Below the pieces are notes generated by a model. That model was given only the letters and a program-made list of their open reading frames with translations. It ran no database searches and was not told the origin of the DNA. Shown here in pieces: positions 1,053 to 18,888 of a stretch of DNA of 64,000 bases. Made by a program: the position numbers and the translations under genes. Each line of letters opens with the position of its first letter. The stretch's first letter is position 1. This DNA is from Promethearchaeota archaeon (lineage in GTDB: Archaea; Asgardarchaeota; Lokiarchaeia; Sigyniarchaeales; SOKP01), in NCBI GenBank assembly GCA_016840165.1, contig JAEOSU010000070.1, forward strand, positions 14,051-78,050, in the 5' to 3' direction.

Positions 1053-2021
1053 TTACTCCATTTTCCTGGATCGTAACCATCCTTCCATTATAATACTTTT
1101 AAAGAATTTAACATGTTTTGAATCTTTGGTATGTATTACTAAATGATTCTCATCATGATTCCCAATTACCGCAAAAAGGAGTTCTTCCCCATCTCTATCG
1201 AGGATATATCGATCTTCTGCTTCATACATTCTGATAGAGATATTATCTAGACTCTGAAATTCTTCTAATAGTTCAGCATCCTCTTCAAGACCAGGGTCAA
1301 TATAACAAGACACTTTCATATTTACTGAAGAGCGTACTTCATATAATGTTAATGTTTGGAGATCTTTTATATTTGGGACCGCAATAGTGACGTTATGAAG
1401 AGCATTCATTAATATTTCTCTCATCTTGGTAAGGATTTTATCTTTTGGGATATCAATATTCGTCCAATCGATAATTTTAGAACCTGATGCGGCGGCTAAT
1501 TGATTTCTTAGTTTTTCATTTTCTTTTTCTAATAATTCTAGATCCTCATCAGCCTTGGTTAGTTCCCCTTTTAATAGTTCAAGCTTCTCTTGAAGATTAT
1601 CTATTTCTTTGTCTTTTTGCTCTACCACTGTTTTTTCTACCCTTGTATCCAATAAAAGCTTAATTTCCTTTTCTTTTAATTCTACTGATTTCTCTAATGT
1701 TTGTATTTTCTCATCTTTAATTTTCAATGAACCATCTAAAGTTTCAACTTGTTCACTTTTCAAACTAATAGAATCTTTAAGTGTTTTAATCTGATCCTCC
1801 TTTAGATTCATTGAACTTTGCAGATTTTTGATCAAATCATCTTTAGTTTTTATTTGCTCATCTTTTACCCTTATTTGATCTCTGAGGGTCATAAGCTTTT
1901 TTATCTCATCTTCTTTAACCCTAAGTTTATCTTTTAAATTCTCAATTTCTTTCTGGAGATCTTCAATCTCTTTTTCTTTTGATTTTGAATCATCTTGGGG
2001 ATGGTTTGCTTGATCTTTCAT
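1053..2021 (-). CDS. Coiled-coil protein with C-terminal TrmB-effector/PLD-like alpha/beta domain
   Basis: About 170 aa of heptads with 14-aa repeats (LKEDQIKTLKDSIS, LKSEQVETLDGSLK). The C-terminus (MREILMNALHNVTIAVP...YILDRDGEELLF) resembles the TrmB C-terminal fold. Confidence 0.6.
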   Translation of the reverse strand: MKDQANHPQDDSKSKEKEIEDLQKEIENLKDKLRVKEDEIKKLMTLRDQIRVKDEQIKTKDDLIKNLQSSMNLKEDQIKTLKDSISLKSEQVETLDGSLKIKDEKIQTLEKSVELKEKEIKLLLDTRVEKTVVEQKDKEIDNLQEKLELLKGELTKADEDLELLEKENEKLRNQLAAASGSKIIDWTNIDIPKDKILTKMREILMNALHNVTIAVPNIKDLQTLTLYEVRSSVNMKVSCYIDPGLEEDAELLEEFQSLDNISIRMYEAEDRYILDRDGEELLFAVIGNHDENHLVIHTKDSKHVKFFKSIIMEGWLRSRKME

Positions 2022-2248
2022 TGATGCATAACTATCTTTTCATTGATCCTTTTAATTAATATAATAAAATTCCTTTTTATTTCTTAGTTATTATTTTAAA
2101 GATTAAAAATAGATTTTATTCGGGAATTTTATGATTTTATTCTTATAATCATTTATTATTGTTCTTGAGGAGAAAATCATAGTTCTGACTAAATATGGAA
2201 ATAAATTTATAAAATAGTTTTATATTTGATTACTGTTATTATAATCTC

Positions 2249-2983
2249 ATGAGCTCAGATCCGAAAATTAAAGATTTAGAAACAGATCTTAATGATCTAT
2301 TAGAGAAAGAAATGAAAGAACTAGCTGGAATTCTTGGGATCACAATTTCATCACATGGAGGTTCTCATTTAGCCAGTAAGTTTAAAAAAGATATCTCAAT
2401 GACGAAAACAGAGATTAGCGCAGCAAGTAGTAGTTTAGTTTTTCTCTCATCAAAAATGTTACAGGATTCGTTAAATCAAAAAATCTCTTACAATTTAATT
2501 ACAGGAAGTAATCGTATTATTCTCTCTGTCCTAACAGATAATATCGCGATGACTTGCTATCTTAATCGTCAACTTGCAGAATTAGAAGGATTAAACGTAT
2601 ATATAAATCATTTGAAAAAATTTTGTATGAAACTTTCTGCGATAATTGCCACTTCGGACATAATTAAAGAGGAGGTTTTTGTTGCTATTAAAAGAGCAAT
2701 CCCTAATGCATTAGTAGTGGCAATAATAACAAAGGATGGTCTTCCTATTAAGATTCAGGCAACAATGCCAGAACCTATTTTGTCTGCCATGATTTCGGCG
2801 ATTTACAATTTATCAAGTGTTTTATTAGAAGGTGGTTTAGAATATTCTGTAATTGGAGGGGAAAATGGCTCAATAATAATCCATGAACTTGATGAAAATC
2901 GTATCATTGCAATTGCTGTGCCTGAAGCTGATGAGAAAAAACTTGGTAGTTATGTGGCAAAGATCAAAACAATAATACCTTAA
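2249..2983 (+). CDS. Tandem (double) Roadblock/LC7 domain protein
   Basis: Two ~120-aa repeats with the Roadblock pattern: GITISSHGGSHLAS..ISAASSSL and VAIITKDGLPI..LSAMISAI..IGGENGSIII. Confidence 0.8.
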   Translation: MSSDPKIKDLETDLNDLLEKEMKELAGILGITISSHGGSHLASKFKKDISMTKTEISAASSSLVFLSSKMLQDSLNQKISYNLITGSNRIILSVLTDNIAMTCYLNRQLAELEGLNVYINHLKKFCMKLSAIIATSDIIKEEVFVAIKRAIPNALVVAIITKDGLPIKIQATMPEPILSAMISAIYNLSSVLLEGGLEYSVIGGENGSIIIHELDENRIIAIAVPEADEKKLGSYVAKIKTIIP

Positions 2984-4240
2984 TTATCCTTCAATTATAA
3001 TCAATCGTTCGATCTTATCAACGATTTTTAGCGCTCCAAAATAAGAGTCTGCAAATGAACTCCCAGTATATAACACCGTACATACTGGTTCGTTTTTCCA
3101 AATTTCATGATCAGGGTTAAATTTATCATAGACGTGATCAATTTTATTGATTTCTTTTATTATTGCACCTTTAATAGCTTGTGGTGCAAAATAAACTAAT
3201 TTCGTGGCAAATTGAGGTTTCTTAATGCTATCAAGTGAAGTTTCTATCTCTTGCCATTTATCCTTAGAAAAGGATTGAATATGTAAATCTAATAAATTAA
3301 TTCTAAGTGCCCTTTCTGAAACTCTAAGGGATCCGGGAATTCTAGGATTGATTTCCATTAAGAAGGGATAATGATTTTTTAATACATAATCAAAACCGTT
3401 TATTCCCCGTAAATTAAGAGTTTTAGTAAGAAAGATTGAAATTTCTGCGATAACATCATTATCTTCTTGTAATAGATTGGCAGGAACTATATTACCGCAG
3501 TAAATGAACTCTTTCGGGGCATGAAGAAACCTCTCCCCTATTATTTGACGGTTGATTGAAATTACCTTAGCATTAACACCATCAGAAATCACAGTGCAAC
3601 TTATAGGTATGCCATCAATATATTCTTGAACGATCCATTGTTTAGGGTTGAATTCTTTCATTCCCAGTTTTTGTTTAAGAAAGATATATTTCTGATATGA
3701 TTCAATTTTATAAACGTTAACTCCTCCCGAGCTCTGCTTCTTTTTTAAGATTACAGGGAAATGTAATTCAGGATTCTGAAAGTTAAATTGATTAGCCTCT
3801 ATACTAATAGGATGCTTGAATTTATTTTTGTCCAATAATTTATATAACAGTCGAATATCTCTGGCCTTTTTGAGAGTTTCGATATCATTATTTAAACTTT
3901 GTATTGTGTATTTTTGATCTTTCAGCTTCTGATAGAAGTGTATTCTCTCATCAAAAGCATCATCTAAACCACTTCCAATAATAAGGTATTCTATATGAGG
4001 ATATTTATCTAATAAGGTTAATGAAAGTTTTAATAAATAACGATGATATATTCCCTTCATTATTTCATAATTTGCACCAAATTCTTGACTAACAATTAGA
4101 GAATCTTCTACATAGGGATATAAATCCTCATCTCCAAAAAAATCAACCGTGAAAACGCGATATCCCGCTAAATGTAGAGAAGTAGCTAATGGCCTAGTGT
4201 TAAAACCAACAACTAGAACAGAATTCTTATTTTTTCTCAT
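2984..4240 (-). CDS. ATP-grasp domain protein of the type found in archaeal C1-cofactor gene neighbourhoods
   Basis: VLVVGFNTRPLA..DFFGDED N-terminus; ILKK..SSGG, VQEYIDG, GFDYV and MEINPR ATP-grasp motifs. Confidence 0.8.
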   Translation of the reverse strand: MRKNKNSVLVVGFNTRPLATSLHLAGYRVFTVDFFGDEDLYPYVEDSLIVSQEFGANYEIMKGIYHRYLLKLSLTLLDKYPHIEYLIIGSGLDDAFDERIHFYQKLKDQKYTIQSLNNDIETLKKARDIRLLYKLLDKNKFKHPISIEANQFNFQNPELHFPVILKKKQSSGGVNVYKIESYQKYIFLKQKLGMKEFNPKQWIVQEYIDGIPISCTVISDGVNAKVISINRQIIGERFLHAPKEFIYCGNIVPANLLQEDNDVIAEISIFLTKTLNLRGINGFDYVLKNHYPFLMEINPRIPGSLRVSERALRINLLDLHIQSFSKDKWQEIETSLDSIKKPQFATKLVYFAPQAIKGAIIKEINKIDHVYDKFNPDHEIWKNEPVCTVLYTGSSFADSYFGALKIVDKIERLIIIEG

Positions 4241-4271
4241 TTGGATAATAAGAGTAATCCAATAAGAGATA

Positions 4272-6479
4272 TTAGAGTATCTTTTTTAATTCCAAAATAA
4301 GATTCTTAGGATTTATTCTATCAAATTGAAATATTTCTGCCTTGCCATATTCTTTGAAGTTCTCCTTTATCTCGTTAGCCGCAAATGTATTCACGCCCAA
4401 TGATTTCGTCGCATAGCTCTTTTTTGGCTCTAAAACCACGAGATGAACCCCTTTTCTTGAGAGCGTTTTAGTTAATTCTTTCAGTTCATTGATTATCACA
4501 TCATAATCACTCTGAACTTGTGCGATCAGGTCGGGGTATTTTACTGAGATATTTGCTCCACAATCTGAGCAGACAAAAATAACAGGAATCACATTTCTAT
4601 TTTTTAATTTTTCAGCATTGATTAATTTGAGAGATTTTGTAAGTGCTGCAGCCATTGGAGTATAAGATTTGCCTTCAATGTTCTTTACTTTATTTGCGGC
4701 AGTTTTAAAATAAACTGTTGGTTTCTGGAGAACCACCGCTTCTTTCCCCCGAAAAATAATCAAACTAATCTTATCTTTTTTTCTATAACCTTCTTTCTGG
4801 AGGGATAAAATTACATCGGTCATTTGTTTTATTACATAATACATTGAAGCAGAGCTATCTAAAACAAAAAATAAGACTAAGGGGGCTCGATATTCATATA
4901 TTTTGTCCATTAAATCATATTTGTCAAACCTTATAGGAAATTCAATATCGGTTTGATTGTAAATTGTATTTTTTAAATAATTTCTGATAGTTGCATCTAA
5001 TGCTATACTTTTTGGTCTATTTCGTGGAGTTCGATAAGCAACATAATGCCCTTTTTGAGTTGACGCTATCTTTATTCTTCTACCAATACCTCTCCCACCA
5101 TAATTAGAAACCTTCCGATCTTTTCTAATATTATCTAAAATGGAAGTCATCTTTTTTTCCATCTTGTATATTAATGGCATAGCGTCAATTTCATAATCTA
5201 AGAAATTAAATAACTCTTCATTATTAGGAATTTCTTTTACTTTCCAACCTCCGGCTGGCGATGGGCTTCTCTTTTTATTATCAGGGAATTTTGGTGGTGG
5301 TAATTTCTGTTCTTTGGTTTCGGGTACATCCACCTTTTTTGGATCTACAGACTGCCTTTTAAATTCTTTCTGTGGTGCATCATCATATTTTAATGGACCC
5401 TCTGTATCTTTATTTGGTTTGTAAGTATTGGTATCCTCATAGGCTTTCTGGATCTTTCCATATACCTCAACGATTTTAGCTTTTACCTCTTCAGGGGTCA
5501 TTTCATAATGTAGACTTTGAATTCGATGTTCAAACACTAGGTCCATGGCAGCATTCAGATCATCTTCATTAACTCGTTTTCTTCCATTAAATGCAGCATG
5601 AGCACGGGCACAACGAATAAAAGTGATATCTGCCCTTTGAGAAAAAATATCTAATTCATTGACTAGTCTAGAGACAAATTCATACACTGTTGATGGTATT
5701 TGGACTTCTTTTAGAATTTTGCGGGCGTTAACGATTTTTTTACGTAATTCCTCTTGCTCTTTTTCATAGTTTTTATAGAATTCTTTAGGATTATCATCAA
5801 ATTCAATTACTCTTTTTGAAATTTCCGCTCGAAGCTTTGCATCGCGGGGCGCTTTAATTTTTACCTCCAAACCTAGTCGATCTGCGATCTGTGGTCTTAA
5901 TTCCCCCTCTTCAGGATTCATTGAACCGACCAAAACGAATCGAGAGGGGTGAGATACTGAAATTCCTTCTCGCTCGATAATGTTAACTCCAGAGGCAGCA
6001 GAATCCAACAATACATCAACAATATGATCTTGTAATAAATTTATTTCATCAACATATAAGATACCTCTGTGGGCTTTAGCGAGCAATCCAGGATGAAGAC
6101 TGCGGATACCTTCAGTAAGAACTTTATCTATGGATAATGAGCCAGTAACCATATCTTCAGTAGCCCCCAACGGCATATCAGCAATACGCATATTGCGTTT
6201 TTCTATTTCAAGTTTACCAGATGCTAATCTTGTTTTACAGTCTTCACATAAAAGCTCAGGATCCGCTTTTGGATCACAAGAAAAGGCACATCCTTGAACA
6301 ACTTCGATTTCAGGCATAACATCTACTAAAGATCTAACAGCTGTTGATTTTCCCGTACCTTGTTGGCCAGTAAGTAGTATACCTCCAATCTGAGGATCCG
6401 TAACGTTTAGAATCAACCCCAATTTCATTTTATCTTGTCCGAGTATGGCAGTAAAGGGGTAATTAATATTTTTAAACAT
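4272..6479 (-). CDS. Mg/Co-chelatase ChlI/ChlD-like AAA+ ATPase fused to a vWA domain
   Basis: YPFTAILGQ, Walker A GQQGTGKS, PGLLAKAHRGILYVDEINLL, NPEEGELRPQ; Pro-rich linker; MIDAS LDSSASM. Confidence 0.9.
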   Translation of the reverse strand: MFKNINYPFTAILGQDKMKLGLILNVTDPQIGGILLTGQQGTGKSTAVRSLVDVMPEIEVVQGCAFSCDPKADPELLCEDCKTRLASGKLEIEKRNMRIADMPLGATEDMVTGSLSIDKVLTEGIRSLHPGLLAKAHRGILYVDEINLLQDHIVDVLLDSAASGVNIIEREGISVSHPSRFVLVGSMNPEEGELRPQIADRLGLEVKIKAPRDAKLRAEISKRVIEFDDNPKEFYKNYEKEQEELRKKIVNARKILKEVQIPSTVYEFVSRLVNELDIFSQRADITFIRCARAHAAFNGRKRVNEDDLNAAMDLVFEHRIQSLHYEMTPEEVKAKIVEVYGKIQKAYEDTNTYKPNKDTEGPLKYDDAPQKEFKRQSVDPKKVDVPETKEQKLPPPKFPDNKKRSPSPAGGWKVKEIPNNEELFNFLDYEIDAMPLIYKMEKKMTSILDNIRKDRKVSNYGGRGIGRRIKIASTQKGHYVAYRTPRNRPKSIALDATIRNYLKNTIYNQTDIEFPIRFDKYDLMDKIYEYRAPLVLFFVLDSSASMYYVIKQMTDVILSLQKEGYRKKDKISLIIFRGKEAVVLQKPTVYFKTAANKVKNIEGKSYTPMAAALTKSLKLINAEKLKNRNVIPVIFVCSDCGANISVKYPDLIAQVQSDYDVIINELKELTKTLSRKGVHLVVLEPKKSYATKSLGVNTFAANEIKENFKEYGKAEIFQFDRINPKNLILELKKIL

Positions 6480-6633
6480 AATTATTATGCAATAACACTT
6501 GATCTATAAAAAAAATTTCCAAATGATATAAAATATTATAGTTATTAATAAAAATAACCGTCCAATTTTCATATATTTATTTAAAATTATGTTTTATTTC
6601 ATTATTTCATTATAGCTAGAGTATTGGATGACG

Positions 6634-6656
6634 AAAATAACGTTAAGCGTTATTTT
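6634..6656. promoter_or_regulatory. 9-bp inverted repeat (operator or terminator hairpin)
   Basis: AAAATAACG-TTAAG-CGTTATTTT between the MPN gene stop and the chelatase start. Confidence 0.3.
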
Positions 6657-6687
6657 AAGAAAAAATTTTATGATAACTATAAGGTTT

Positions 6688-7638
6688 TTAAAATTTTTTT
6701 GAGATCTCAGCTAATTTAGAGTCTAAATTTGTCACTTCTTCATCCCAGAGTGACATGATCTCATTTACTTGTGGAATTATGGTATATCTTTCTTTATATT
6801 CAAGATAGTCCATAAATTCTTTAACATTTCCGATCTTAATATAAGTTTCAGCCACAAATTTTCGAATCTCATGAATTTGATTATTTAATACCTCTGGAAT
6901 CCGATGAGATTCCCCTTTTCGCACCAAGGTCATTAAATATTCTTCAGTTCCAAGTAGAAGTGACCTAAATTTTTTTAATTTCTCTTCTACGAAAGTTTGA
7001 TAAGTCTCAAATATTTTGTCCTTTGGGAAAAAGTTAGTGACATTTATGATAAATTTTTGAGTTTGGTTAACTAATTGCTCCATATTATCATATCCCTCAA
7101 CAACATAGTCAGTGGTATGATATGAAGCTTCAATCCCCCTAGAAGTATCATCTAAACTAAATATTTTAAAGCCAGGATCATTTTTCAAAGGTTTTTCTGG
7201 ATCTCCTTTTTTATCAGGCATTTCTACTTGGCGCAATAGTCTTTCAGGATTGAATACAAGTGTGAAATAGGAGGGATTCGCTGTTTGATGGAAGGCAAGA
7301 TGTCGAATATCAATATGACTTAACATTACTTTAAATCCCGGATGAGAATGCCATGAACCAACCGTATACAATCCCCTCGAAAAGGCCTCATCATCAATAA
7401 GAGTATATGTAACATTATCCTCTTCTGACCACTCATATTTATCGATGACTGCATCTTTATCAAACTTTTCATGCATAATAGGATATGATTCCTTAATCAA
7501 AATATCATCATCCTTCTTTTCACCGATAAAAACACCATTTACTTCTAACCACTCTTCTTTTGGGATTTTTTTATTGGCAAATCTCACCGCTGCAGCAACC
7601 ACAGTTAGATAAACATTTTTTGGTATTATTATAGTCAT
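6688..7638 (-). CDS. MPN/JAB (JAMM) metalloprotease domain protein with helical C-terminus
   Basis: EVNGVFIG...VGSWHSHPGFKVMLSHID gives a complete E-x(n)-HxH-x7-S-x2-D motif. Confidence 0.85.
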   Translation of the reverse strand: MTIIIPKNVYLTVVAAAVRFANKKIPKEEWLEVNGVFIGEKKDDDILIKESYPIMHEKFDKDAVIDKYEWSEEDNVTYTLIDDEAFSRGLYTVGSWHSHPGFKVMLSHIDIRHLAFHQTANPSYFTLVFNPERLLRQVEMPDKKGDPEKPLKNDPGFKIFSLDDTSRGIEASYHTTDYVVEGYDNMEQLVNQTQKFIINVTNFFPKDKIFETYQTFVEEKLKKFRSLLLGTEEYLMTLVRKGESHRIPEVLNNQIHEIRKFVAETYIKIGNVKEFMDYLEYKERYTIIPQVNEIMSLWDEEVTNLDSKLAEISKKF

Positions 7639-7816
7639 TATTACTATTTCTATTTCTTTATATTTTTGATGAAGTTATACTAATCCGTATATTTATGTTT
7701 TCTTTCTTCTACAAAATATAAAATTATTTAAATTCAAAATTTACCATTATATTATTACCTAGAGTCATTTTAAAACAGATTCCAAGTAAATATTTTTGAT
7801 TGAATTGTGATTAAAT

Positions 7817-8437
7817 GTGAGTGAAAAAGGATTTGAACCATTAAGTAGCCAACTAGGTATTGCGGGAACATCCTATCGAATTCAATTAGGACTTATCAAT
7901 GGTCGATGGGCTTCACGATTATTAAAGGGAAATAATGTAATCGATTCTTATATTTATAAGGATGAAGATGTTCAAGGAGGGTATCCAAATCAAAATATAA
8001 TAGTTGGATGGGTACTAAGAACTGTTGCCATTCCTAATATCAATCCTCATCAAGTTATGAAGACTACTCAAGCTTTAGTAAAGCAAGCGATTGATAAAAA
8101 AGAACAGAAGAAAGTAATGGCCCCAATTTCGGAAACTAAGGAGGTTGAATTAGAGAAAGTCCCAGAAAGCCAGCTAAAAAGAGTTCAGACCAAAGGTTGG
8201 GTAAAAGAGGAGGGAATGAAGTCAATACAAGAACTTGAGGAGGATAAACGTGAAGCATTCAGAGAAAGAATGAAATATAAACATGAAGAGGAAGCAGTAA
8301 GAAAGGGTGAGACTATACATATTACCCGAGACTTACCTTCAATTCCTAAAGCGGGAGATCAAACTTCCAAAAGTTGCCCGAGTTGTGGTAAGGATTTAGA
8401 TTTTAAATATTGTCCCTATTGCGGACAAAAATTATAA
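7817..8437 (+). CDS. Hypothetical protein with C-terminal zinc ribbon
   Basis: 206-aa ORF ending CPSCGK..KYCPYCGQKL. Confidence 0.7.
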   Translation: MSEKGFEPLSSQLGIAGTSYRIQLGLINGRWASRLLKGNNVIDSYIYKDEDVQGGYPNQNIIVGWVLRTVAIPNINPHQVMKTTQALVKQAIDKKEQKKVMAPISETKEVELEKVPESQLKRVQTKGWVKEEGMKSIQELEEDKREAFRERMKYKHEEEAVRKGETIHITRDLPSIPKAGDQTSKSCPSCGKDLDFKYCPYCGQKL

Positions 8438-8642: not shown

Positions 8643-10142
8643 ATGAGTGATTTAATCATGGGGAAGTATGTTGATGAAAGCATAGTGATTGTTAAACCAT
8701 TGGCTTATTATAAAATGTTAGTTCATATACTTCGATTTGGTTCGAAAACGAGGGATCATAGGCAATTTAAGGAAGTAATCGGGATGTTAGTGGGTCATTT
8801 AGAAGGGGAAGATAAAATTAAAGATGTTATAATTGAGGATGTAGTACCAATTTCACATGGTGGGTCGATAGAAGTAAAATTCACAGAAGAACAATTAGGT
8901 GCTTTCGGAGAAATAGATTTACAAATCTTTAAAGAACACGGTTCAAAAAATTGGTTCACTGTGGGTTGGTATCATTCACATCCAGGATTAAATATATTTT
9001 TCTCCTCAACTGACGTTTATAATCAACTTTTTTGGCAGGATAGGAATCCTAGTGGCGTTGGATTGGTATTTGATCATACCTATTTAGAACGTGAAGGAGA
9101 TTTAGGATTTCGCGCCTTTCGATTAGATGATCCTTCAAAGGGCCTTAATTCGGATTATCATGAAGTTAAATCGAAAGTCGAACTCCCCTCCGATGATTCA
9201 TTTTATTCAAATGTAATAGATTTAATTAATAACATTCAGTTGAACCTACCACCATTATATGAATTAAATGAAACTACAGATTTATTTAGCGATGTATTTA
9301 TTCCGGATAAAAAGGACTTAGAGATCCAAAAACCAGAATTACATCTCCAAGAATTGATATCTTCTTTGAAAACAGGCCTAAACTCCTTTTTAGATCTTTC
9401 TATGATTCCATTAATTACTTCTCTAAATGAATGGAGTCAAAATATTACTAGTAAAACTTATTATAATAATACCCAAATTCGAAACGACCTAATTGAATTG
9501 AAGGATAATCTCTCAATAAGTTTAAAGGAAGTACAAAAATCATTCAATTTCAATTTGCAGGATAATTTAAAGAAACTAGATGACTATATTTCTGATACAT
9601 TTGATGTATTTGAAGAGGAACAAGATAATATTAAGCAAATTTATGAGGAGTTTAAAAGTAAAGTAAATCAAGAGACAGAAACTCTATTTAATGAAAAAAT
9701 AAAGTTTTCAGTGGAACAAATCAATTTTCTATTTGAAAACTGCAGAAAGTTGATAGCAGATATGGATACAGTGAATATTAATTGTATTGAAAGCCTAAAA
9801 AAGAGTAATGAAATAACGGAAAATTTATCTAAAATCGTCATGCCCTCAGAAAAAAGGATCTTCAGCAAATTAGAAGAAGATAAAAACAAAATAATAGATA
9901 ACTTCAAGAAAAAATCTGCTAATCTGGAAAACAATATCACGAATATGAATAAAGAAACAAAAAAGATTTTATCTAATCTTAAAGCAGCTATTTTAGTTCT
10001 TGAAGGTTCAAAAGAACCTATTTTTAGTAAGATTGAGAAATTAGAAAGTGAAAAGAAAAATTTGCATTCAAATATTAAAGAACTAAAAAGTGAAAAACAA
10101 GAATTATTAAGTCAAATTAAAGATTTAAAGAAAGGAGGATAA
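8643..10142 (+). CDS. Rpn11/CSN5-like MPN+ protein with long helical/coiled-coil C-terminus
   Basis: KMLVH..KEVIGMLVG..VGWYHSHPGLNIFFSSTDVYNQ..GFRAFRL; about 280 aa of amphipathic helix follows. Confidence 0.85.
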   Translation: MSDLIMGKYVDESIVIVKPLAYYKMLVHILRFGSKTRDHRQFKEVIGMLVGHLEGEDKIKDVIIEDVVPISHGGSIEVKFTEEQLGAFGEIDLQIFKEHGSKNWFTVGWYHSHPGLNIFFSSTDVYNQLFWQDRNPSGVGLVFDHTYLEREGDLGFRAFRLDDPSKGLNSDYHEVKSKVELPSDDSFYSNVIDLINNIQLNLPPLYELNETTDLFSDVFIPDKKDLEIQKPELHLQELISSLKTGLNSFLDLSMIPLITSLNEWSQNITSKTYYNNTQIRNDLIELKDNLSISLKEVQKSFNFNLQDNLKKLDDYISDTFDVFEEEQDNIKQIYEEFKSKVNQETETLFNEKIKFSVEQINFLFENCRKLIADMDTVNINCIESLKKSNEITENLSKIVMPSEKRIFSKLEEDKNKIIDNFKKKSANLENNITNMNKETKKILSNLKAAILVLEGSKEPIFSKIEKLESEKKNLHSNIKELKSEKQELLSQIKDLKKGG

Positions 10143-10148
10143 AGGTTA

Positions 10149-11552
10149 ATGCCAAAAAACTCGAAGAATTCTACTCAAACTGATAGCAAAGATAAGATAA
10201 TCGAAAGTAAATCTGAAGGTAGTGTAAACATTCAATATGAAGCATTTAGGAAAATGATAACTCATACTCTCCGATTTGCTAATGAATCAAAGGAGGAAGA
10301 TCAACAAGTATTAGGTTTGTGCATTGGTGAGTATTTCAAAGAAAATAAAAATTATATTGTTAAGGATGTTATTCCGATTTGTCATGGTGATGCTGTTGAA
10401 CTTGGATTTTCTAAAGAGATTCATGAGACTATCGAAGAAATTAAATCCCAATATTCTGAATCTATTAATTCTATAATTGGTTGGTATCACTCCCATCTGG
10501 GATACGGACTATATTTTTCAAATTCGGATAAAGTGAATAACCTCAATTTCCAAAACTCAGAAAACATTTATGGATTTGGAATTGTTATAGAACAAACATT
10601 ACTTAATGAGGATCAGAGTTTTGGAGTAGCAGTATTTCGGCTTAAAGACTTTAATAAAGGTTCTGAAAATGACTATATTAAGGTAGAATTTAATATAGAA
10701 CCCCCAAATTCCATGGAATTTTTTAAGTGGGTAAAACAATTAGTTGAATCAACTCAAAGCAAAAGTTCTCAGATCATTTATGAATTTAATGAAGTACAAA
10801 AACCATCTCCCGAAAATCTTCAAAAAATTCCTACACTCCCACAAGAAGAGACGGAATCTGAAGTAAAAGAAGAACTTTCTTTGCTCTATGGAGTTGATGA
10901 GGGTATGGAAAAATTAAAAGATTCTTTTCTCAAATTATATGAAATACAGTTGACTTCATGGATGAGTGATGTTTCTAATGGGGTTTTAATTGGTTCTGAA
11001 TATATTAGGAGCTCTATTAACAATATCAAAACAACTTTAACTTCAGGACTGGAAGATGCTCAACGGATATTTGATAAAAGTTTTTCTGATATTTCGAATC
11101 TTTTCATGAAGAATATACGAGGAAGCGTCGATATACGGTTAGAAAATCAAATTGAATTGAAAGAGAATATTAAAGCAATTAATGAGGAACAATTAAATAA
11201 CTTATTCGCTCGTTTAGAAAAGGAAATACGCGATGTGACGAATAATTTCGAGGAAAAAATAACAAATATTAAAAAAGAATTGGAAAAGATTGCTCTAAAT
11301 AATAATTCTATTCAACAATCTTTAATTCAAACAAATGATATATTAAGTACCGTTTATGAAGAGACCGATAAATTATCAGATAACATCATCCAACATATAG
11401 AAAATTCAAGTAAATCATTCGAATCAAAGTTATTGAATGAATTAGAAGATTTCTCTAGAAATATAACTCCAAATAAAGAAATTTACACTGAAATAGAAGA
11501 CCTAATCGAGAGATTACAACGAGTGATTTCTGATTTACGCCAAGTAAAATAA
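10149..11552 (+). CDS. MPN domain protein (catalytic Glu position is Gln) with long helical C-terminus
   Basis: KMITH..QQVLGLCIG..IGWYHSHLGYGLYFSNSD; starts 6 nt after the upstream paralog, with a GGAGG SD. Confidence 0.8.
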   Translation: MPKNSKNSTQTDSKDKIIESKSEGSVNIQYEAFRKMITHTLRFANESKEEDQQVLGLCIGEYFKENKNYIVKDVIPICHGDAVELGFSKEIHETIEEIKSQYSESINSIIGWYHSHLGYGLYFSNSDKVNNLNFQNSENIYGFGIVIEQTLLNEDQSFGVAVFRLKDFNKGSENDYIKVEFNIEPPNSMEFFKWVKQLVESTQSKSSQIIYEFNEVQKPSPENLQKIPTLPQEETESEVKEELSLLYGVDEGMEKLKDSFLKLYEIQLTSWMSDVSNGVLIGSEYIRSSINNIKTTLTSGLEDAQRIFDKSFSDISNLFMKNIRGSVDIRLENQIELKENIKAINEEQLNNLFARLEKEIRDVTNNFEEKITNIKKELEKIALNNNSIQQSLIQTNDILSTVYEETDKLSDNIIQHIENSSKSFESKLLNELEDFSRNITPNKEIYTEIEDLIERLQRVISDLRQVK

Positions 11553-11565
11553 CGAAAGCTTATTT

Positions 11566-11880
11566 TTAAAAAAATTCAAGATTAGAAACCATAGAGATAT
11601 GGAGTTTATATTTAGGAATATTGGTTTTGAGTCGTTTCAATTGATTTCTTTTCGCTATATTGCTTAATATTCTTCCGATTTTATCGACTCTAATGTTAAT
11701 CCCAAAATTTTCTTTCAAGACAGAATTAATTTTATAAGAAGAGAGAATCACTACATTGGAGACATTTTTTTCACATAACATCTCAATAGCTTGTTTAACT
11801 AAAGATATTAATTTATCTATATCTTGTTTGCTATTCATACTTATATAATGATTATATTTGAAACTTTTTAAAGCTTTCAA
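11566..11880 (-). CDS. Small basic winged-helix-like protein (likely start at the internal MNSKQ)
   Basis: LSSYKINSVLKENFGINIRVDKIGRILSNIAK is HTH-like; Lys/Arg rich. Confidence 0.5.
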   Translation of the reverse strand: MKALKSFKYNHYISMNSKQDIDKLISLVKQAIEMLCEKNVSNVVILSSYKINSVLKENFGINIRVDKIGRILSNIAKRNQLKRLKTNIPKYKLHISMVSNLEFF

Positions 11881-11975
11881 CGAGTAAAGAGAATGTTGTT
11901 AAGATTTATTTAAGAAAAAAATTTTATATACTAAGTCAATACATTGATTATAATTAGTTTAAATGGATTAAATAA

Positions 11976-14294
11976 ATGAAAAAGTTAAACCTTTTATCAA
12001 AATTTAAAAATTCTTTAAAACCTCTTTTTAGAAAAATCATATTTAAAGAGATCTATGTTGAGGGAAAAGAGCCACCTAAATCATTTGCTTTTGAAAAAGA
12101 ATTTTTAGGCATCTATTGCATATTTTTATTCTATTCTTTCATTTTATTACTTGGAATTAATTTTCCTGATAACTTATTTATTTATTTAATAACATTTGGG
12201 AATCCATTTGCTTTTGGAAATGCAATTGTAGCACTTTTTTTATGCCTTTCTTTATTATTTAGTAACGATAAAATAAGACTCTTCATTTTCGAAGGTCACA
12301 CCGTATTAAAGCAAGTAATTTTATATGTCGGTATCACCACTGTTTTTTATTTTGTATTTTTAAGTCTTTCCAGCCTCAATATTATGAGTTATCTTCTTTG
12401 TTTAGCAACATTCTGGCTTATATTATTAAGTACAAGATTTTTTATGTATTCTCGAAAATTTGCTACCAAAATTGAAGCTCAAGCTATAGAAAAGTATTCA
12501 TCATTACGGCGAGCAGGGGCTTTTATCACCCCTTATTTTATTTTAGGCGTTTTAGTGGCATTAGCATTGATATATCGGAGTTTTTTAGTCTTTATATCGT
12601 TAGATCTATTTGCTTTATCTGATCCAGTCAGTGCGGTAAATATTTATATTATTGAAATGCGTTTAATAATGCCTTTAATCTACTTTAGCCTAATACTCAC
12701 TTTACTCTTCATTATATTTGAATTTGTATTCACAAGAAAGAAAGCAGAAACAAAACGAGCGGGATTATATGATAACTTTACCTTTTCCCTCATTGTGTTA
12801 TTTATCTTTTTCTTTCAGATCCTTCAAGTGACTATATTTTTATTTTTAAGCTCTGAAACCGTATCTGCTCTAAAAACTACAGTTGGTACAACAAGCTCAC
12901 CTATATCGTATATTTTTATATTTGAATTTTTAATTTCTATGTTTTTTCTCTACCGCATTATTAAAAAGTTTGGACGATCAATTGGATGGCAACTATTATT
13001 CTTTAAGAGAGATGGATTGGTTCTTTTGATATTAGGTTGTGTATTTGCCCAAACGCTGAGCCGATTTTCTTTACAAACACAGATTCCAAATCAATCAATA
13101 ACCATTTTGGGGAATTTCTTTATGGCAGATAAATATGTTGTTTCTATAATTATGATCATCTTTCTTGGATTGACCCTACTAATTTACTATCTTAAACCTC
13201 ATGAAACCTCAATGTTTATTCGATTACAAAAGGAAACGGTGGATAAAAAAGAAGAAAGCATGGATATAATCTATAAATTAATTAAAAGTGAGTATATTCG
13301 ACGTGGAGATGCATATCCAATTGAAATTTTGGAAAGAGAATTGATTAAAGCGACTAAGTTACCGAAAAATGAGGTATATTCCTTACTGGATAAACTCTCA
13401 GATGAAAGCATTGATATTGTTTTAACCGAAAAGAAAAATGATTATGGTATAAAACAGAAATTCATTGATTTTACATCAGTAACCGAGAAATTTGACAGCA
13501 AAACTGTTGCAGAAAGAAAAGCGAAGAATTTTTTATCTCAACGATTATATAAAACAATTTCGAGCAAAAAAACTAAAGATTTGAAACTAAGTAGCAACAT
13601 TAAATCGGAAAAAGCATCTGATCAATTTTTGAGCTCCTTAGCAACGGATATATCAAAAAAACATAGAGATGAGCAAAAAATCAAATTAAAACAAAACAAT
13701 ACAGAAATCTCATTTATTAGAAAGGAGGTCCCTGAGTCATTAAAGCATTCAATATTAACTATACTTAAAAAGGAGTATATCTATCGTATTGAAAATAAAG
13801 AGAAATATCCTGATTTTACTTATCCCATATCAGAAATCGCCTCTACAGTCCAATTGGAAACAAGAATTAATCCAGGAGAATTATATCCTATCTTGGAAAC
13901 CCTTAATCAAACTGATATAGAATTAAGATTACTAGATAATCCCAATGAACCAGAAGATAAAATAATTGACTTTTATCCTATAGATGATGATTTAAATTAT
14001 ACTTTGTCAAGTTTTAGACCCAACCAATATTCTAAGATTAAGATAGAATTTATGAATAATTTTATTAAACATTTAAAACGCAAACGTGTTAAAGCAACTC
14101 TCTCTAAGATAAAGAAGAATATATCAAATGAAAATGAGGAACAGAAATACTGGAATAAACTTTATCAAATTTTAATTAATTATTTTCCGAATTTCGAGGA
14201 AGTTCTCCAAAAAGAGAGAGAGGGTGGAGATATATCAAAAGTTCTTAAAATATTCCCTCTCAAAGATATTGATGTATTCAATATTGAATCCTAA
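11976..14294 (+). CDS. Polytopic membrane protein with C-terminal tandem winged-helix-like repeats
   Basis: About 10-11 hydrophobic segments in the first ~410 aa, then two repeats of the form xKxEYIxR..YPI..E.Y..L..L...IDF. Confidence 0.65.
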   Translation: MKKLNLLSKFKNSLKPLFRKIIFKEIYVEGKEPPKSFAFEKEFLGIYCIFLFYSFILLLGINFPDNLFIYLITFGNPFAFGNAIVALFLCLSLLFSNDKIRLFIFEGHTVLKQVILYVGITTVFYFVFLSLSSLNIMSYLLCLATFWLILLSTRFFMYSRKFATKIEAQAIEKYSSLRRAGAFITPYFILGVLVALALIYRSFLVFISLDLFALSDPVSAVNIYIIEMRLIMPLIYFSLILTLLFIIFEFVFTRKKAETKRAGLYDNFTFSLIVLFIFFFQILQVTIFLFLSSETVSALKTTVGTTSSPISYIFIFEFLISMFFLYRIIKKFGRSIGWQLLFFKRDGLVLLILGCVFAQTLSRFSLQTQIPNQSITILGNFFMADKYVVSIIMIIFLGLTLLIYYLKPHETSMFIRLQKETVDKKEESMDIIYKLIKSEYIRRGDAYPIEILERELIKATKLPKNEVYSLLDKLSDESIDIVLTEKKNDYGIKQKFIDFTSVTEKFDSKTVAERKAKNFLSQRLYKTISSKKTKDLKLSSNIKSEKASDQFLSSLATDISKKHRDEQKIKLKQNNTEISFIRKEVPESLKHSILTILKKEYIYRIENKEKYPDFTYPISEIASTVQLETRINPGELYPILETLNQTDIELRLLDNPNEPEDKIIDFYPIDDDLNYTLSSFRPNQYSKIKIEFMNNFIKHLKRKRVKATLSKIKKNISNENEEQKYWNKLYQILINYFPNFEEVLQKEREGGDISKVLKIFPLKDIDVFNIES

Positions 14295-15906: not shown

Positions 15907-18888
15907 TTATTCTATAACTATCATAGATTTTCCATGGTGTTTTGGAATGGACTCAGCCCCACAGGAAGCACCCATCCAGCAAACCAGTTGATCGCCTTCT
16001 TGGTGCATTGGCTTACCACAATGTGAAGGTATCTCTTGTTCATAATCACATTCTTGACATTTTAATTTTCCCATAACTTTATCACTCTTACTTTTTTCAT
16101 TATTTTTAATAAATTTTTCAGGATTGTTTTTAAATTCAGTTCGACAAGATTCACTACAGAAATAGTATTCCTTCCCTTCATATTCATAAGATACCCAATC
16201 TTCTGGATTCCCTTTCATACCACAAACCGGATCAATAACTTCTTCAGATTCTTCCCTTTTCATCATTAATTTAGGATTCATATTATCATAATTTTTAAAT
16301 TTATCTGGATTTCGTTTGAAATGAGCTTCACAGTTAGGATTGCAAAAATGAAATAATTTATCTTCATACACATATTCAATTGCCCTTCTTGGATCGATTT
16401 CCATACCACAAACTGGGTCTATCACTTTCTCTTGAGAAAGTAGTATTCGTTCCTCTTCTACTTGAAGGGGCGTTTTTGGTTCATAGCGTTTCAGAAATAG
16501 GGCGTTAGTCACCACGGATACAGAACTAGAAGCCATGAATACTGCTGCTAAGTATGGTGGTAAAAAGAATCCTGTAATGTAATATAAAATCCCAGCCGCA
16601 ATTGGAATACCGATAAGATTGTAAATAAAAGCCCAGAATAAATTAGTCAACATTTTTTTATAGGTTTTTTTCGATAGATTAATTGCAGCAACGACGTTCC
16701 GTAGATCACCTCGCATTAATACAATATCTGCCGTCTCTATGGCAATATCAGTACCCGAACCAATTGCAATCCCAACATCAGCTTGAGCTAATGCGGGAGC
16801 ATCATTTATTCCATCACCTACCATTGCTACTGTAGCTTTTTTATTTTTCTGTAATTTTTTAATAGTCTCAGCTTTTTCATTTGGGAGAACTTCCGCTAAT
16901 ATCTTATCCTCTTCAATTCCTAGCTTCTTTCCGATGTTCAATCCAGTTTTCTTATTATCACCGGTTATCATATAGATCTTAAGACCTTCTTCTCGCAATT
17001 TCTCCATAGTATAATATGCTTGGTCTTTAATTTTATCCGAAATGCCGATAATTCCTCGTAATTTGTTATCTACACTAACTAATATTGAGGTAACTCCCTC
17101 TTCTTGAAATTCCGCTAATTTAGGTAAGTATTCACTAATTTCAATATTATTATCTTGTATCAGTTTTTCATTACCAATAATTATAACTTCATCACTGATT
17201 TTTGCGATGATCCCTTTTCCCGGTTTTGCGTCAAATTCTTTTGGAGATTCTAATAACAATCCTCTTTGATTCGCCTCTTCAATTATAGCGCGTGCTAATG
17301 GATGCTCTGAACCCATTTCAGCACTTCCAGCAGCGATTAATAACTTTCCTTCGTCAAAACCTTCTTTATTTAGTTCCTTTTCAGTGAAAATCTTTGAAAC
17401 TCTTGGTTTTCCTACTGTCAAAGTTCCAGTTTTATCAAATACTATTGTATTTACCGAATTTATAGCTTCTAATGAGTCGCCACCTTTCAGTAATATTCCA
17501 TTCTCTGCTCCTTTTCCAGTTCCCACCATAATAGCAGTGGGTATTGCTAATCCCAGAGCACATGGGCATGAGATCACAACAATAGAAGTAAATACTTGTA
17601 AAGACATCTCTAAACCGATATTTGCAATGAAAAACCAATATAAAAAGGCAATAATGGCAATTAATACTACAATAGGAACAAAATAATTGCTCACTTTATC
17701 AGCAAGCTTTTGTTTGGCGGCTTTTTTACTTTGTGCTTCTTTCACAAAGTCTATAATCTGAAATAGTAAAGTATCCTTTCCAACTCGCTCTGATTTCACT
17801 TGTAATAATCCTGTTTGATTAACTGTTGCACCAATTACTTCACTATCAACTTCTTTCTTAATATATTTACTTTCCCCAGTAATCATTGACTCATCAACTT
17901 TAGTTTTTCCTTTAATCACTCTACCATCAACAGGTATTTTTTCACCTGGTCTTACAACAAGAATATCTCCAACTTCAATTTCTTCGATGGGGATCTCTAT
18001 TTCTTTTCCATCCTTTAGGAGTGTTGCAGTTTTTGGCTGGAGACCAATAAGTTTCTTTAAAGCTTCAGAAGTTTGGCCTTTAGTCTTATGTTCAAAGTAT
18101 TTTCCGATTAAGAGGAATGACAAAATCATAGACATTGCTTCGTAGAATGTTTTTCCATCAATAAAAAACGTAGTTAAAATAGAATAAACTAAAGCAGTAG
18201 TTGTACCTAGGGCGACTAAGACATCCATATTTGTAGATTTGTTTCTTAATGATTTATATGCTCCGATAAGGAAGAAGGATCCCGCAACACCATAATTCCC
18301 AATAGCCAAGAAAAAGAGGAGTAAATTTCTAATAAAAGACTCAGCTACAAACCAACTAATTGGTGTAATAACAAGTGTAAATGCTAATGATATGAATAAG
18401 ATTCGAAGTCGATAATTCATTTCTTTTTTATGCTTTTCAATTTCCTTATCAATCGCACCAGCAGCTTTTTCAATGTCATATCCTAATTTTTTAATGTGTG
18501 TATAAACTTTGATCTCATCAATTTTTAATTCATTGAATTCGATAAATAACTTAGAAGCTGCGAAATTACCACGAACACTGTGTATCCCTTCAATAGACTT
18601 CACTTTTCCAACTAATGAATTAAAATTATCCTCGGTGAGTATGTCATTTACTTTAATATCTACTTTAGCTAGAGTAGATTTATATCCTAAATCTTTTATA
18701 GCCTTGTTAAACTCGTCATAGTTGGTTACATCCGAATTATATTCCACTGTAGCCTCTTCATTTGCGAAATTTACCACTGAACTGGAGACTCCTGGCATAT
18801 CCTTCAGTTTTGTCTCTATTTTTAGCGCACATGATGCACATGTCATGCCGCCTAGCTTAATTTTTATTTTTTCTTCCGTTGATTCCAC
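15907..18888 (-). CDS. copA: Cu(I)-translocating P1B-type ATPase with HMA, two YHS domains and a C-terminal Cys/His module
   Basis: [36 protein letters not shown] and MxxSS motifs; two DPVCGM...FC YHS repeats. Confidence 0.95.

Follow-up and report, generated by a model that had tools for sequence, protein, structure and literature searches.

Within a 64,000-nucleotide (nt) stretch of the genome of a Promethearchaeota archaeon (hereafter the window; ~30% G+C, source genome of 3.6 Mb in 105 contigs), we analyzed two adjacent genes, termed A and B, which encode MPN-domain proteins with long helical tails. Gene A (8643-10142, + strand) is an open reading frame (ORF) for an MPN+ (JAMM) protein of 499 amino acids (aa), the presumed catalytic subunit, and gene B (10149-11552, + strand) encodes a 467-aa paralog with an impaired JAMM site, presumed to be its non-catalytic partner. 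Both match the Pfam JAB profile PF01398 (cut-off 22.5 bits), A with 52.5 bits (E = 5.1e-14) and B with 39.4 bits (E = 6.1e-10). The genes are co-oriented and separated by 6 nt, lying between the TAA stop codon of A (10140-10142) and the ATG of B at 10149, and their products are 29% identical over 337 residues (E = 1e-33) in an alignment that extends into the tails. Judging by this alignment, A and B are paralogs; the ORFs, the gap, and the identity all bear out the original prediction of co-oriented paralogs 6 nt apart. A GGAGG can be read in the last codons of A (10134-10138, + strand), 10 nt 5' of the ATG of B, and represents a possible ribosome-binding site that would fit coupled translation of B.

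More than 354 homologues of A were found, and every named source among them carries an Asgard label (Promethearchaeota, Lokiarchaeota, or other Asgard names). AlphaFold2 models built from family alignments (mean predicted local distance difference test score (pLDDT) of 75.5 for A and 75.8 for B) show a common layout for both proteins, consisting of the MPN domain, a low-confidence linker of 35-45 residues, and a very long helix.

The MPN domain of A comprises residues 14-199 (8682-9239, + strand) according to the AlphaFold2 model and Foldseek. Its catalytic Glu44 (K43-E44-V-I-G; codon 8772-8774, + strand) is invariant in 63/63 aligned A homologues and is followed by the zinc ligands and the serine of H111-x-H113-x7-S121-xx-D124 (8973-9014, + strand). 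In this alignment (A3), for which 63 sequences were hand-picked from 120 listed A homologues under exclusion of partial sequences, H111, S112, H113, P114, S121, and D124 are all invariant columns. The full motif anticipated for A (KEVIG and HSHPG..S..D) was read directly at E44, H111, H113, S121, and D124 and is invariant in relatives. By sequence, A matches the Rpn11-like protein of Caldiarchaeum (4.8e-10), yeast Rpn11 (1.9e-8), BRCC36 (8e-7), and CSN5 (2e-6) in the PDB. The top Foldseek matches of its MPN model are BRCC36 (6gvw_B, 8.6e-11), Rpn11 (4o8x_B, template modelling (TM) score of 0.69 on the target), and CSN5, with E values of 1e-9 to 1e-11 for these three folds. According to passages of PMC9313428, the motif ExnHxHx7Sx2D defines MPN+ proteins, while MPN- members are scaffolds that are paired with MPN+ partners. 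With its MPN profile match, its complete E-xn-HxH-x7-S-xx-D motif, and its MPN fold, A belongs to the MPN+/JAMM class.

The MPN domain of B comprises residues 20-203 (10206-10757, + strand; AlphaFold2 model and Foldseek), and its model is matched best by Rpn11 (4ocm_E, 1.2e-11; 4o8x_B, TM score of 0.70 on the target) and CSN5. Sequence and alignment place Gln53 (Q52-Q53-V-L-G; codon CAA, 10305-10307, + strand) where the catalytic Glu would be expected. The second half of the motif, H114-x-H116-x7-S124-xx-D127 (H114-S-H116-L-G; 10488-10529, + strand), is kept in the window and has been lost in many orthologues. Both features had been predicted, Gln at the Glu position with HxH, Ser, and Asp retained, and both were read directly. 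B thus shares with MPN- proteins a retained MPN fold and an incomplete JAMM motif. Rpn8, CSN6, and Abraxas typically have no zinc site; B differs in this respect, as H114, H116, and D127 are kept in the window copy, and many of its orthologues have lost them. In the alignment of the B family (A2, 50 sequences), G111, Y113, and S115 are the sole invariant residues of the HxH stretch, and the two histidines are variable. Because the glutamine is shared by the close genomes L002 and L003 and by each of the 14 cluster representatives nearest to B (P0003-P0016, identities of 64-99%), Gln53 is, on the sequences at hand, not an assembly slip. In addition, a contig from a separate study spans the whole 3.3-kb stretch with 40 differences, and none at 10305-10307 is among the differences listed. 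The suggestion that nearby Glu residues (SKEED) might compensate for the substitution found no support, as the acidic stretch also precedes this position in B orthologues that keep the Glu.

The distribution of the pair was assessed by searching 400 genomes of the phylum with B. Matches were obtained in 235 of them, including all 134 other genomes of the family to which the window belongs. A lies immediately upstream of B on the same strand in all 29 loci of a first set of 30 (L001-L030) that have enough flank (L028 begins at the end of a contig) and in 19 of the 20 loci of a second set (L031-L050) chosen to span genera, that is, in 48/49 loci together. The gap between the two genes is typically 0-10 nt, also in copies down to ~25% identity. 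In the single exception, L045 (7326-13368), ~6 kb are inserted between B and A. With these queries, no full-length match to A or B was found in two closed genomes of the order (G135 and G138) and two 97-99% complete genomes of the family (G191 and G228). Two genomes (G187 and G198) gave reading frames of 977 and 952 aa covering B, which raised the possibility of A-B gene fusions; this was rejected, as both loci contain two separate ORFs.

The origin of the pair was analyzed in a maximum-likelihood tree (quick IQ-TREE search) of 54 rows, to which 26 genomes each contributed their first and their second gene; the remaining two rows are a single-copy homologue and an outgroup paralog. These genomes were hand-chosen for spread from the 50 loci after the active-site states were known, and two rows were flagged as long branches. 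First genes and second genes each fall on one side of a branch with a Shimodaira-Hasegawa-like approximate likelihood ratio test (SH-aLRT) value of 92. The single-copy homologue, which stems from another order of the same class and has no adjoining paralog, lies outside both clades (SH-aLRT 95). In four genomes of other classes, the best A matches cover the MPN domain only, in proteins of 248-331 aa. As judged from this tree, the pair arose by one tandem duplication inside one order of Lokiarchaeia-type Asgard archaea. On the current view, eukaryotes do not branch inside this archaeal order. Together with the duplication within one order, this argues that the pair is independent of the eukaryotic MPN+/MPN- pairs (Rpn11/Rpn8, CSN5/CSN6, and BRCC36/Abraxas), with the tree consisting of archaeal sequences only. 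Orthology to Rpn11/Rpn8, CSN5/CSN6, eIF3h/f, or BRCC36/Abraxas would place the A/B split at the eukaryotic duplication; this disagrees with the sister clades of A and B inside one order in the archaeal tree and with the best matches of B, which are active eukaryotic subunits.

We observed a pronounced asymmetry in the fate of the two active sites. The six motif columns were read in all 99 copies from the fetched loci (49 first genes and 50 second genes). Among the first genes, 47/49 show E-H-H-P-S-D and the other two are unreadable at the Glu (a contig end and an N), so that all 47 readable copies are intact. Among the second genes, the E/H/H/S/D set is complete in only 9/50 and a Ser to Thr exchange is the sole change in 3/50, while 38/50 lack one or more of the Glu, the two His, and the Asp; QHHLSD, EHRLSD, EIRPTT, EVHPTD, ESHPSA, ECNPAH, and NHILQN are among the variants. 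The Glu is replaced by Gln in 9 copies and by Ala, Asn, or Asp in 4, the first His by Ile, Val, Leu, Ser, or Cys in 21, the second His by Arg in 11, and the Asp by other residues in 8; three copies have no zinc ligand left. At least four distinct active-site states of B occur in the window's own genus. On the 26-genome tree, the intact-or-not state requires a minimum of 6 changes, the Glu position 7, each of the two His positions 4, and the Asp position 5. The original prediction had proposed to look for conservation of the Glu to Gln exchange among orthologues, and in this respect the outcome was mixed: Glu is kept in 37/50 second genes, yet 25 of those 37 have lost His or Asp, so that a criterion based on the Glu was too narrow. 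The active/inactive asymmetry as such was supported, with an invariant motif in A and a site in B that has been hit repeatedly and differently among orthologues.

The divergence between the two genes differs by region. In the MPN domain, the copies of A share a mean pairwise identity of 0.608 and those of B one of 0.402, and the value for A exceeds that for B in 325/325 genome pairs. The linkers are similar in this respect (0.424 for A and 0.412 for B; A higher in 175/325), and the tails are the least conserved (0.258 for A and 0.226 for B; A higher in 259/325). Total clade length in the 26-genome tree amounts to 16.8 for A and 24.0 for B. By these comparisons, the extra divergence of B is located in its MPN domain and not in its tail. 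The reading frames of B are full length in most copies. Because of these full-length frames, a tail of fixed length (192-198 aa), and a conserved C-terminal motif, we regard B as maintained and not dying. The pattern is that expected of a partner whose catalysis would have become dispensable soon after the duplication.

The linker of A (residues 200-246; 9240-9380, + strand) is of low confidence in the AlphaFold2 model (pLDDT < 50 at 205-223, 229-235, and 242-246) and contains a conserved ELNETTDLF..IP motif in the alignment, in which E207, N209, E210, and P221 are invariant. Inside the disordered linker of B, a conserved L-Q-E-I-P is present at residues 224-228 (~10818-10832), with L224, I227, and P228 invariant and Lys226 in the window. 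The short linker motifs of A (207-221) and B (224-228) could serve as docking motifs. The linkers are followed by long amphipathic helices, modelled by AlphaFold2 as a single helix in A (residues 247-496; 9381-10130, + strand) and as residues 239-466 in B (239-297 and 301-466 with a break at 298-300; 10863-11546, + strand). The helix of B terminates in a conserved LIERLQKVISDLRQ.K motif (consensus of alignment A2). Amphipathic helices of ~270 aa had been predicted for both proteins; their amphipathic nature was confirmed, but the tails are shorter, at about 230-250 aa in the models.

The hydrophobic period of the tails is 3.60 for A and 3.55 for B, values that were reached by 0/300 shuffles in either case. 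The MPN domain of A, which served as a control, has no periodicity peak, and 162/300 shuffles reach its value. In the tail of A, the autocorrelation is higher at lag 11 (0.38) than at lag 7 (0.29). Family-averaged hydrophobicity likewise gives lag 11 at or above lag 7, with a local period of ~3.62-3.74 in the first half of both tails and of ~3.5-3.6 later. Measured from a conserved Trp to the C-terminus, the tail of B has 192-198 aa in 26/26 genomes and that of A 193-339 aa. In the two earliest-branching pairs, the tails of A and B are almost equal in length. Co-variation of tail lengths as support for an in-register rod was rejected, as B is constant, A is variable, and the lengths do not track (r = -0.32). 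Charge complementarity of the tails was likewise dropped as support, the tendency being weak (19/26 genomes). A search with the tail of A alone in 1.84 billion representatives returned 33 matches; in all full-length proteins among them the tail occupies the same C-terminal position, and the short matches are fragments. In NCBIfam, the ESM Atlas, and this tail-only search of representatives, only the family itself was recovered.

Physical pairing of A and B was addressed by predicting the complex of the full-length proteins from alignments of our own. The score was 0.42 (0.42, 0.49, and 0.42 in three runs) compared to 0.00 for the best of three controls, which counts as weak support. The mark applied is reached by 116/157 solved complexes and by 2/215 mismatched pairs; scores of up to 0.60 that still pass are found in only 18/157 solved complexes and in both of the passing mismatches. 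Contact agreement between the A+B runs was at least 33% and partner pLDDT at least 64, and the pass may mirror the likeness to already solved MPN heterodimers. From the strict adjacency with its small gap, the GGAGG ahead of B, the co-inheritance, the apparent joint absence, and this complex score, we infer an A-B heterodimer. Regarding the original prediction of an active/inactive heterodimer of independent origin, the active/inactive part is backed by the motif states and the independent origin by the duplication within one order, while the heterodimer itself, also in the structure prediction that had been proposed to examine it (0.42 versus 0.00 for the controls), has gained weak support.

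Based on these data, we propose that A and B are two subunits of one JAMM isopeptidase module, in which catalytic A works with a structural or substrate-binding B; we assign this reading a probability of roughly 55%. According to this model, B would go back to a tandem duplication of A in the ancestor of one Lokiarchaeia-type order of Asgard archaea and would have been freed from the need for catalysis of its own. After the exchange of Glu for Gln in the present lineage, B probably still holds zinc and would be unable to activate water, leaving it as a structural or substrate-binding partner of A. Both proteins would be made from one transcript, with the GGAGG within the end of A; the inactivity of B and the coupled translation are inferred. 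In a run of an RNA library, two 151-nt contigs were found on B (10148-10295 and 10329-10479), which is too little to claim transcription or co-transcription. A scan for bacterial-type promoters and terminators gave the same counts as shuffles and is inapplicable to archaea. Pairing would most likely occur via the MPN domains and the long hendecad/heptad helices, giving a rod with a length of tens of nanometres that carries one active site at its end. The likely substrates would be conjugated or precursor forms of the ubiquitin-like proteins encoded elsewhere in the genome.

In a wider sense, the data may mean that one Asgard order independently invented an MPN+/MPN- heterodimeric deubiquitinase by a eukaryote-like route, namely the tandem duplication of a self-associating JAMM enzyme followed by the loss of catalysis in one copy, and that this process is caught in progress. 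The module would be carried by a helical stalk, fixed in length in B, that may keep the active site at a distance from a point of anchoring. As part of this reading, living lineages would display every stage from two intact sites to a partner without zinc ligands. We consider the chances of this broader scenario to be evenly balanced.

Several observations weigh against the proposed module. The whole motif is kept in 9/50 B copies, so both subunits may be active in some lineages. The B of the window keeps both His, Ser, and Asp and is thus not a classical MPN- protein, and its inactivity hangs on one residue. The predicted A+B complex is weakly supportive only. The period is nearer to 3.6-3.7 than to 3.5 over much of the tails, which also fits surface-binding amphipathic helices, and the combination of a variable A tail with a fixed B tail means that an in-register coiled coil over the whole length misfits some genomes. 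Mean tail charges (-4.9 for A and -9.2 for B) are not clearly complementary, with A above B in just 19/26 genomes. Finally, the link to ubiquitin is one of genome content alone, and the ubiquitin operon described below carries its own JAB gene.

An alternative is a separate action of the two proteins, in which each forms its own homodimeric rod. B would then bind or regulate on its own without cleaving, for instance as a zinc-bound trap that captures ubiquitin-like tails, and would merely be co-transcribed with A. The single-copy homologue in the sister order suggests a self-associating ancestor, B keeps its zinc ligands here, its H79-G80 segment is invariant across the B family, and the A and B tail lengths do not track (r = -0.32). 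We nevertheless regard separate action as unlikely in view of the near-universal adjacency, with a typical gap of 0-10 nt down to ~25% identity, the apparent joint absence of A and B, and the weak support from the heteromeric model (0.42 versus 0.00 for the controls). Somewhat less likely still is that the tails are 11-residue-repeat amphipathic helices lying on a membrane or lipid surface, comparable to apolipoproteins and perilipins, and anchoring both MPN domains there. The hydrophobic stripe is narrow, with one or two positions per turn pair, and thus more typical of helix-helix packing, although the local period of 3.62-3.74 in the first half of both tails and the predominance of lag 11 over lag 7 in A (0.38 versus 0.29) would agree with surface binding. 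Also in favour of a surface location are weak Pfam Apolipoprotein matches (0.0062 and 0.073), a fragment named 'phasin' by one source, and a conserved polytopic membrane protein encoded downstream. Those Pfam matches are, however, far below the cut-offs, and the membrane protein is retained in genomes that have neither A nor B.

It is improbable that B remains active as an isopeptidase in this organism, with the role of the Glu taken over by Gln53 or by an acidic residue nearby and with two active enzymes serving different substrates. HxH, Ser, and Asp are intact in the window copy, and the whole motif is found in 9/50 orthologues. The Glu, however, belongs to the MPN+-defining motif, as stated in passages of PMC9313428, and is invariant in 63/63 A homologues. 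Sister B lineages have lost His or Asp, and the B family overall is therefore not selected for catalysis; moreover, the acidic stretch before position 53 is also present in B copies that keep the Glu. We give very little credence to the notion that B is a decaying duplicate without function. Its faster evolution compared to A and its eroded active site would be in line with decay, but across the order the reading frame is intact over its full length in most copies, with one or two in-frame stops in several of the matches listed. Moreover, the tail does not vary in length, conservation extends to the fold residues and the C-terminal motif, and the MPN domain of B retains a mean identity of 40% compared to 23% for the tail.

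The proposed A-B module shares its design with known MPN pairs. Rpn11-Rpn8 and CSN5-CSN6 (PMC9313428) are likewise paralogous MPN pairs with one catalytic member and with C-terminal helices in both chains that are used in assembly. In sequence and fold, A as well as B is closest to the active Rpn11 and CSN5, together with BRCC36 and the Rpn11-like enzyme of Caldiarchaeum, and B is no better matched to the inactive Rpn8, CSN6, or Abraxas than to the active subunits. In contrast to these eukaryotic pairs, the A/B duplication is separate, much younger, and inside one archaeal order, the tails are single helices of 230-250 aa instead of short helices feeding a multi-subunit bundle, the B of the window keeps its zinc ligands, and no clear PCI partners were found in the genome with the PF01399 profile. 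The best PCI match in the genome (27.3 bits, 1.2e-5) is away from the locus, and the same model matched 4/14 control genomes; PCI partners near the MPN pair, as expected of a lid module, were therefore rejected. BRCC36-Abraxas/ABRO1, the cores of BRCA1-A and BRISC, are also MPN+/MPN- pairs in which both chains run into a pairing coiled coil, and BRCC36 is the top Foldseek match of A. They differ in that they are not orthologous, the A/B tails are several times longer, and the inactive B is a recent copy of the active A. The predicted resemblance to Rpn11-Rpn8 or BRCC36-Abraxas is thus one of design but not of descent, B being closest to active Rpn11 and CSN5.

The best PDB sequence match of A is CsRpn11 of Caldiarchaeum subterraneum (PDB 6fjv/6fju), described in passages of PMC6043591 as an archaeal Rpn11-like JAMM enzyme that processes archaeal ubiquitin. 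According to the same passages, CsRpn11 is a short protein, its gene is part of a ubiquitin operon, and its crystals contain a parallel homodimer (PMC6043591), whereas A and B have long tails and lie outside the ubiquitin operon. The counterpart of CsRpn11 in the present genome is more likely the 277-aa JAB gene of the ubiquitin operon than A or B.

In eukaryotes, the proteasome lid, the COP9 signalosome, eIF3, and BRCC36 complexes are all characterized by a pair of active and inactive MPN proteins. The locus appears to represent a real, undescribed, and convergently evolved MPN+/decaying-MPN gene pair in Asgard archaea. No description of such an archaeal pair was found in the openly accessible full-text literature, with paywalled literature and supplements lying outside the search. 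If true, a convergent Asgard pair would imply that a dimerising JAMM enzyme readily gives rise to this design. Such a pair would further provide a natural series of intermediates for the evolution of pseudoenzyme partners, with dozens of independent states of the active site inside one order. In addition, A and B add to the expanded JAMM repertoire of these archaea.

Regarding possible substrates, another contig of the same genome carries a ubiquitin-type operon (L053, ~1787-8267) with three ubiquitin-domain genes, a ThiF-type E1 of 410 aa, an E2 of 175 aa, the 277-aa JAB protein, and a 379-aa protein without a family. Further ubiquitin-like and E2 genes are present elsewhere in the genome. 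Because the genome encodes these ubiquitin-like, E1, and E2 genes, their conjugates or precursors are candidate substrates of A. The operon is adjoined by a gene for a 367-aa coiled-coil protein with weak ATG17/ATG16-like matches.

The genome contains six MPN genes in total, four of which encode helical or TPR tails. A third JAB gene in the window (6688-7638, - strand; 316 aa) has a complete E-HxH-S-D motif and a helical tail of ~130 aa. It lies divergently upstream of A and is kept there in at least 12/20 related loci, and genomes lacking A and B still have a similar gene. The genome encodes two more MPN proteins with a complete motif, a 517-aa protein whose C-terminal half is TPR-like (L051:4296-5849, + strand) and a 408-aa protein with ~190 aa of helical tail (L052:3515-4741, - strand).

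A gene order conserved in the family (4272-8437 and 11566-14294) surrounds the pair and comprises a chelatase-like AAA+-VWA gene, the third JAB gene, a gene for a zinc-ribbon protein, A, B, a 104-aa ORF, and a gene for a membrane protein. The AAA+-VWA gene matches TIGR02442 with 599 bits, which is below the cut-off of that model. The zinc-ribbon protein has 206 aa and a C-terminal CxxC-x9-CxxC. The 104-aa ORF downstream of B is well conserved and lies on the other strand. The membrane protein, of 772 aa, has about ten membrane helices and a soluble C-terminal half without a family match. A functional link of A and B to these neighbours was rejected, as two closed genomes that have neither A nor B still encode the membrane and zinc-ribbon proteins, and because of this persistence the conserved neighbourhood may be mere inherited gene order.

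Upstream of the cluster, the window encodes a 322-aa coiled-coil protein with weak SMC/Rad50-like matches (1053-2021, - strand) and a 244-aa Roadblock/LC7 protein (2249-2983, + strand). A P-type ATPase of 993 aa is encoded at 15907-18888 (- strand); its N-terminal HMA and C-terminal YHS/TRASH domains suggest a copper pump.

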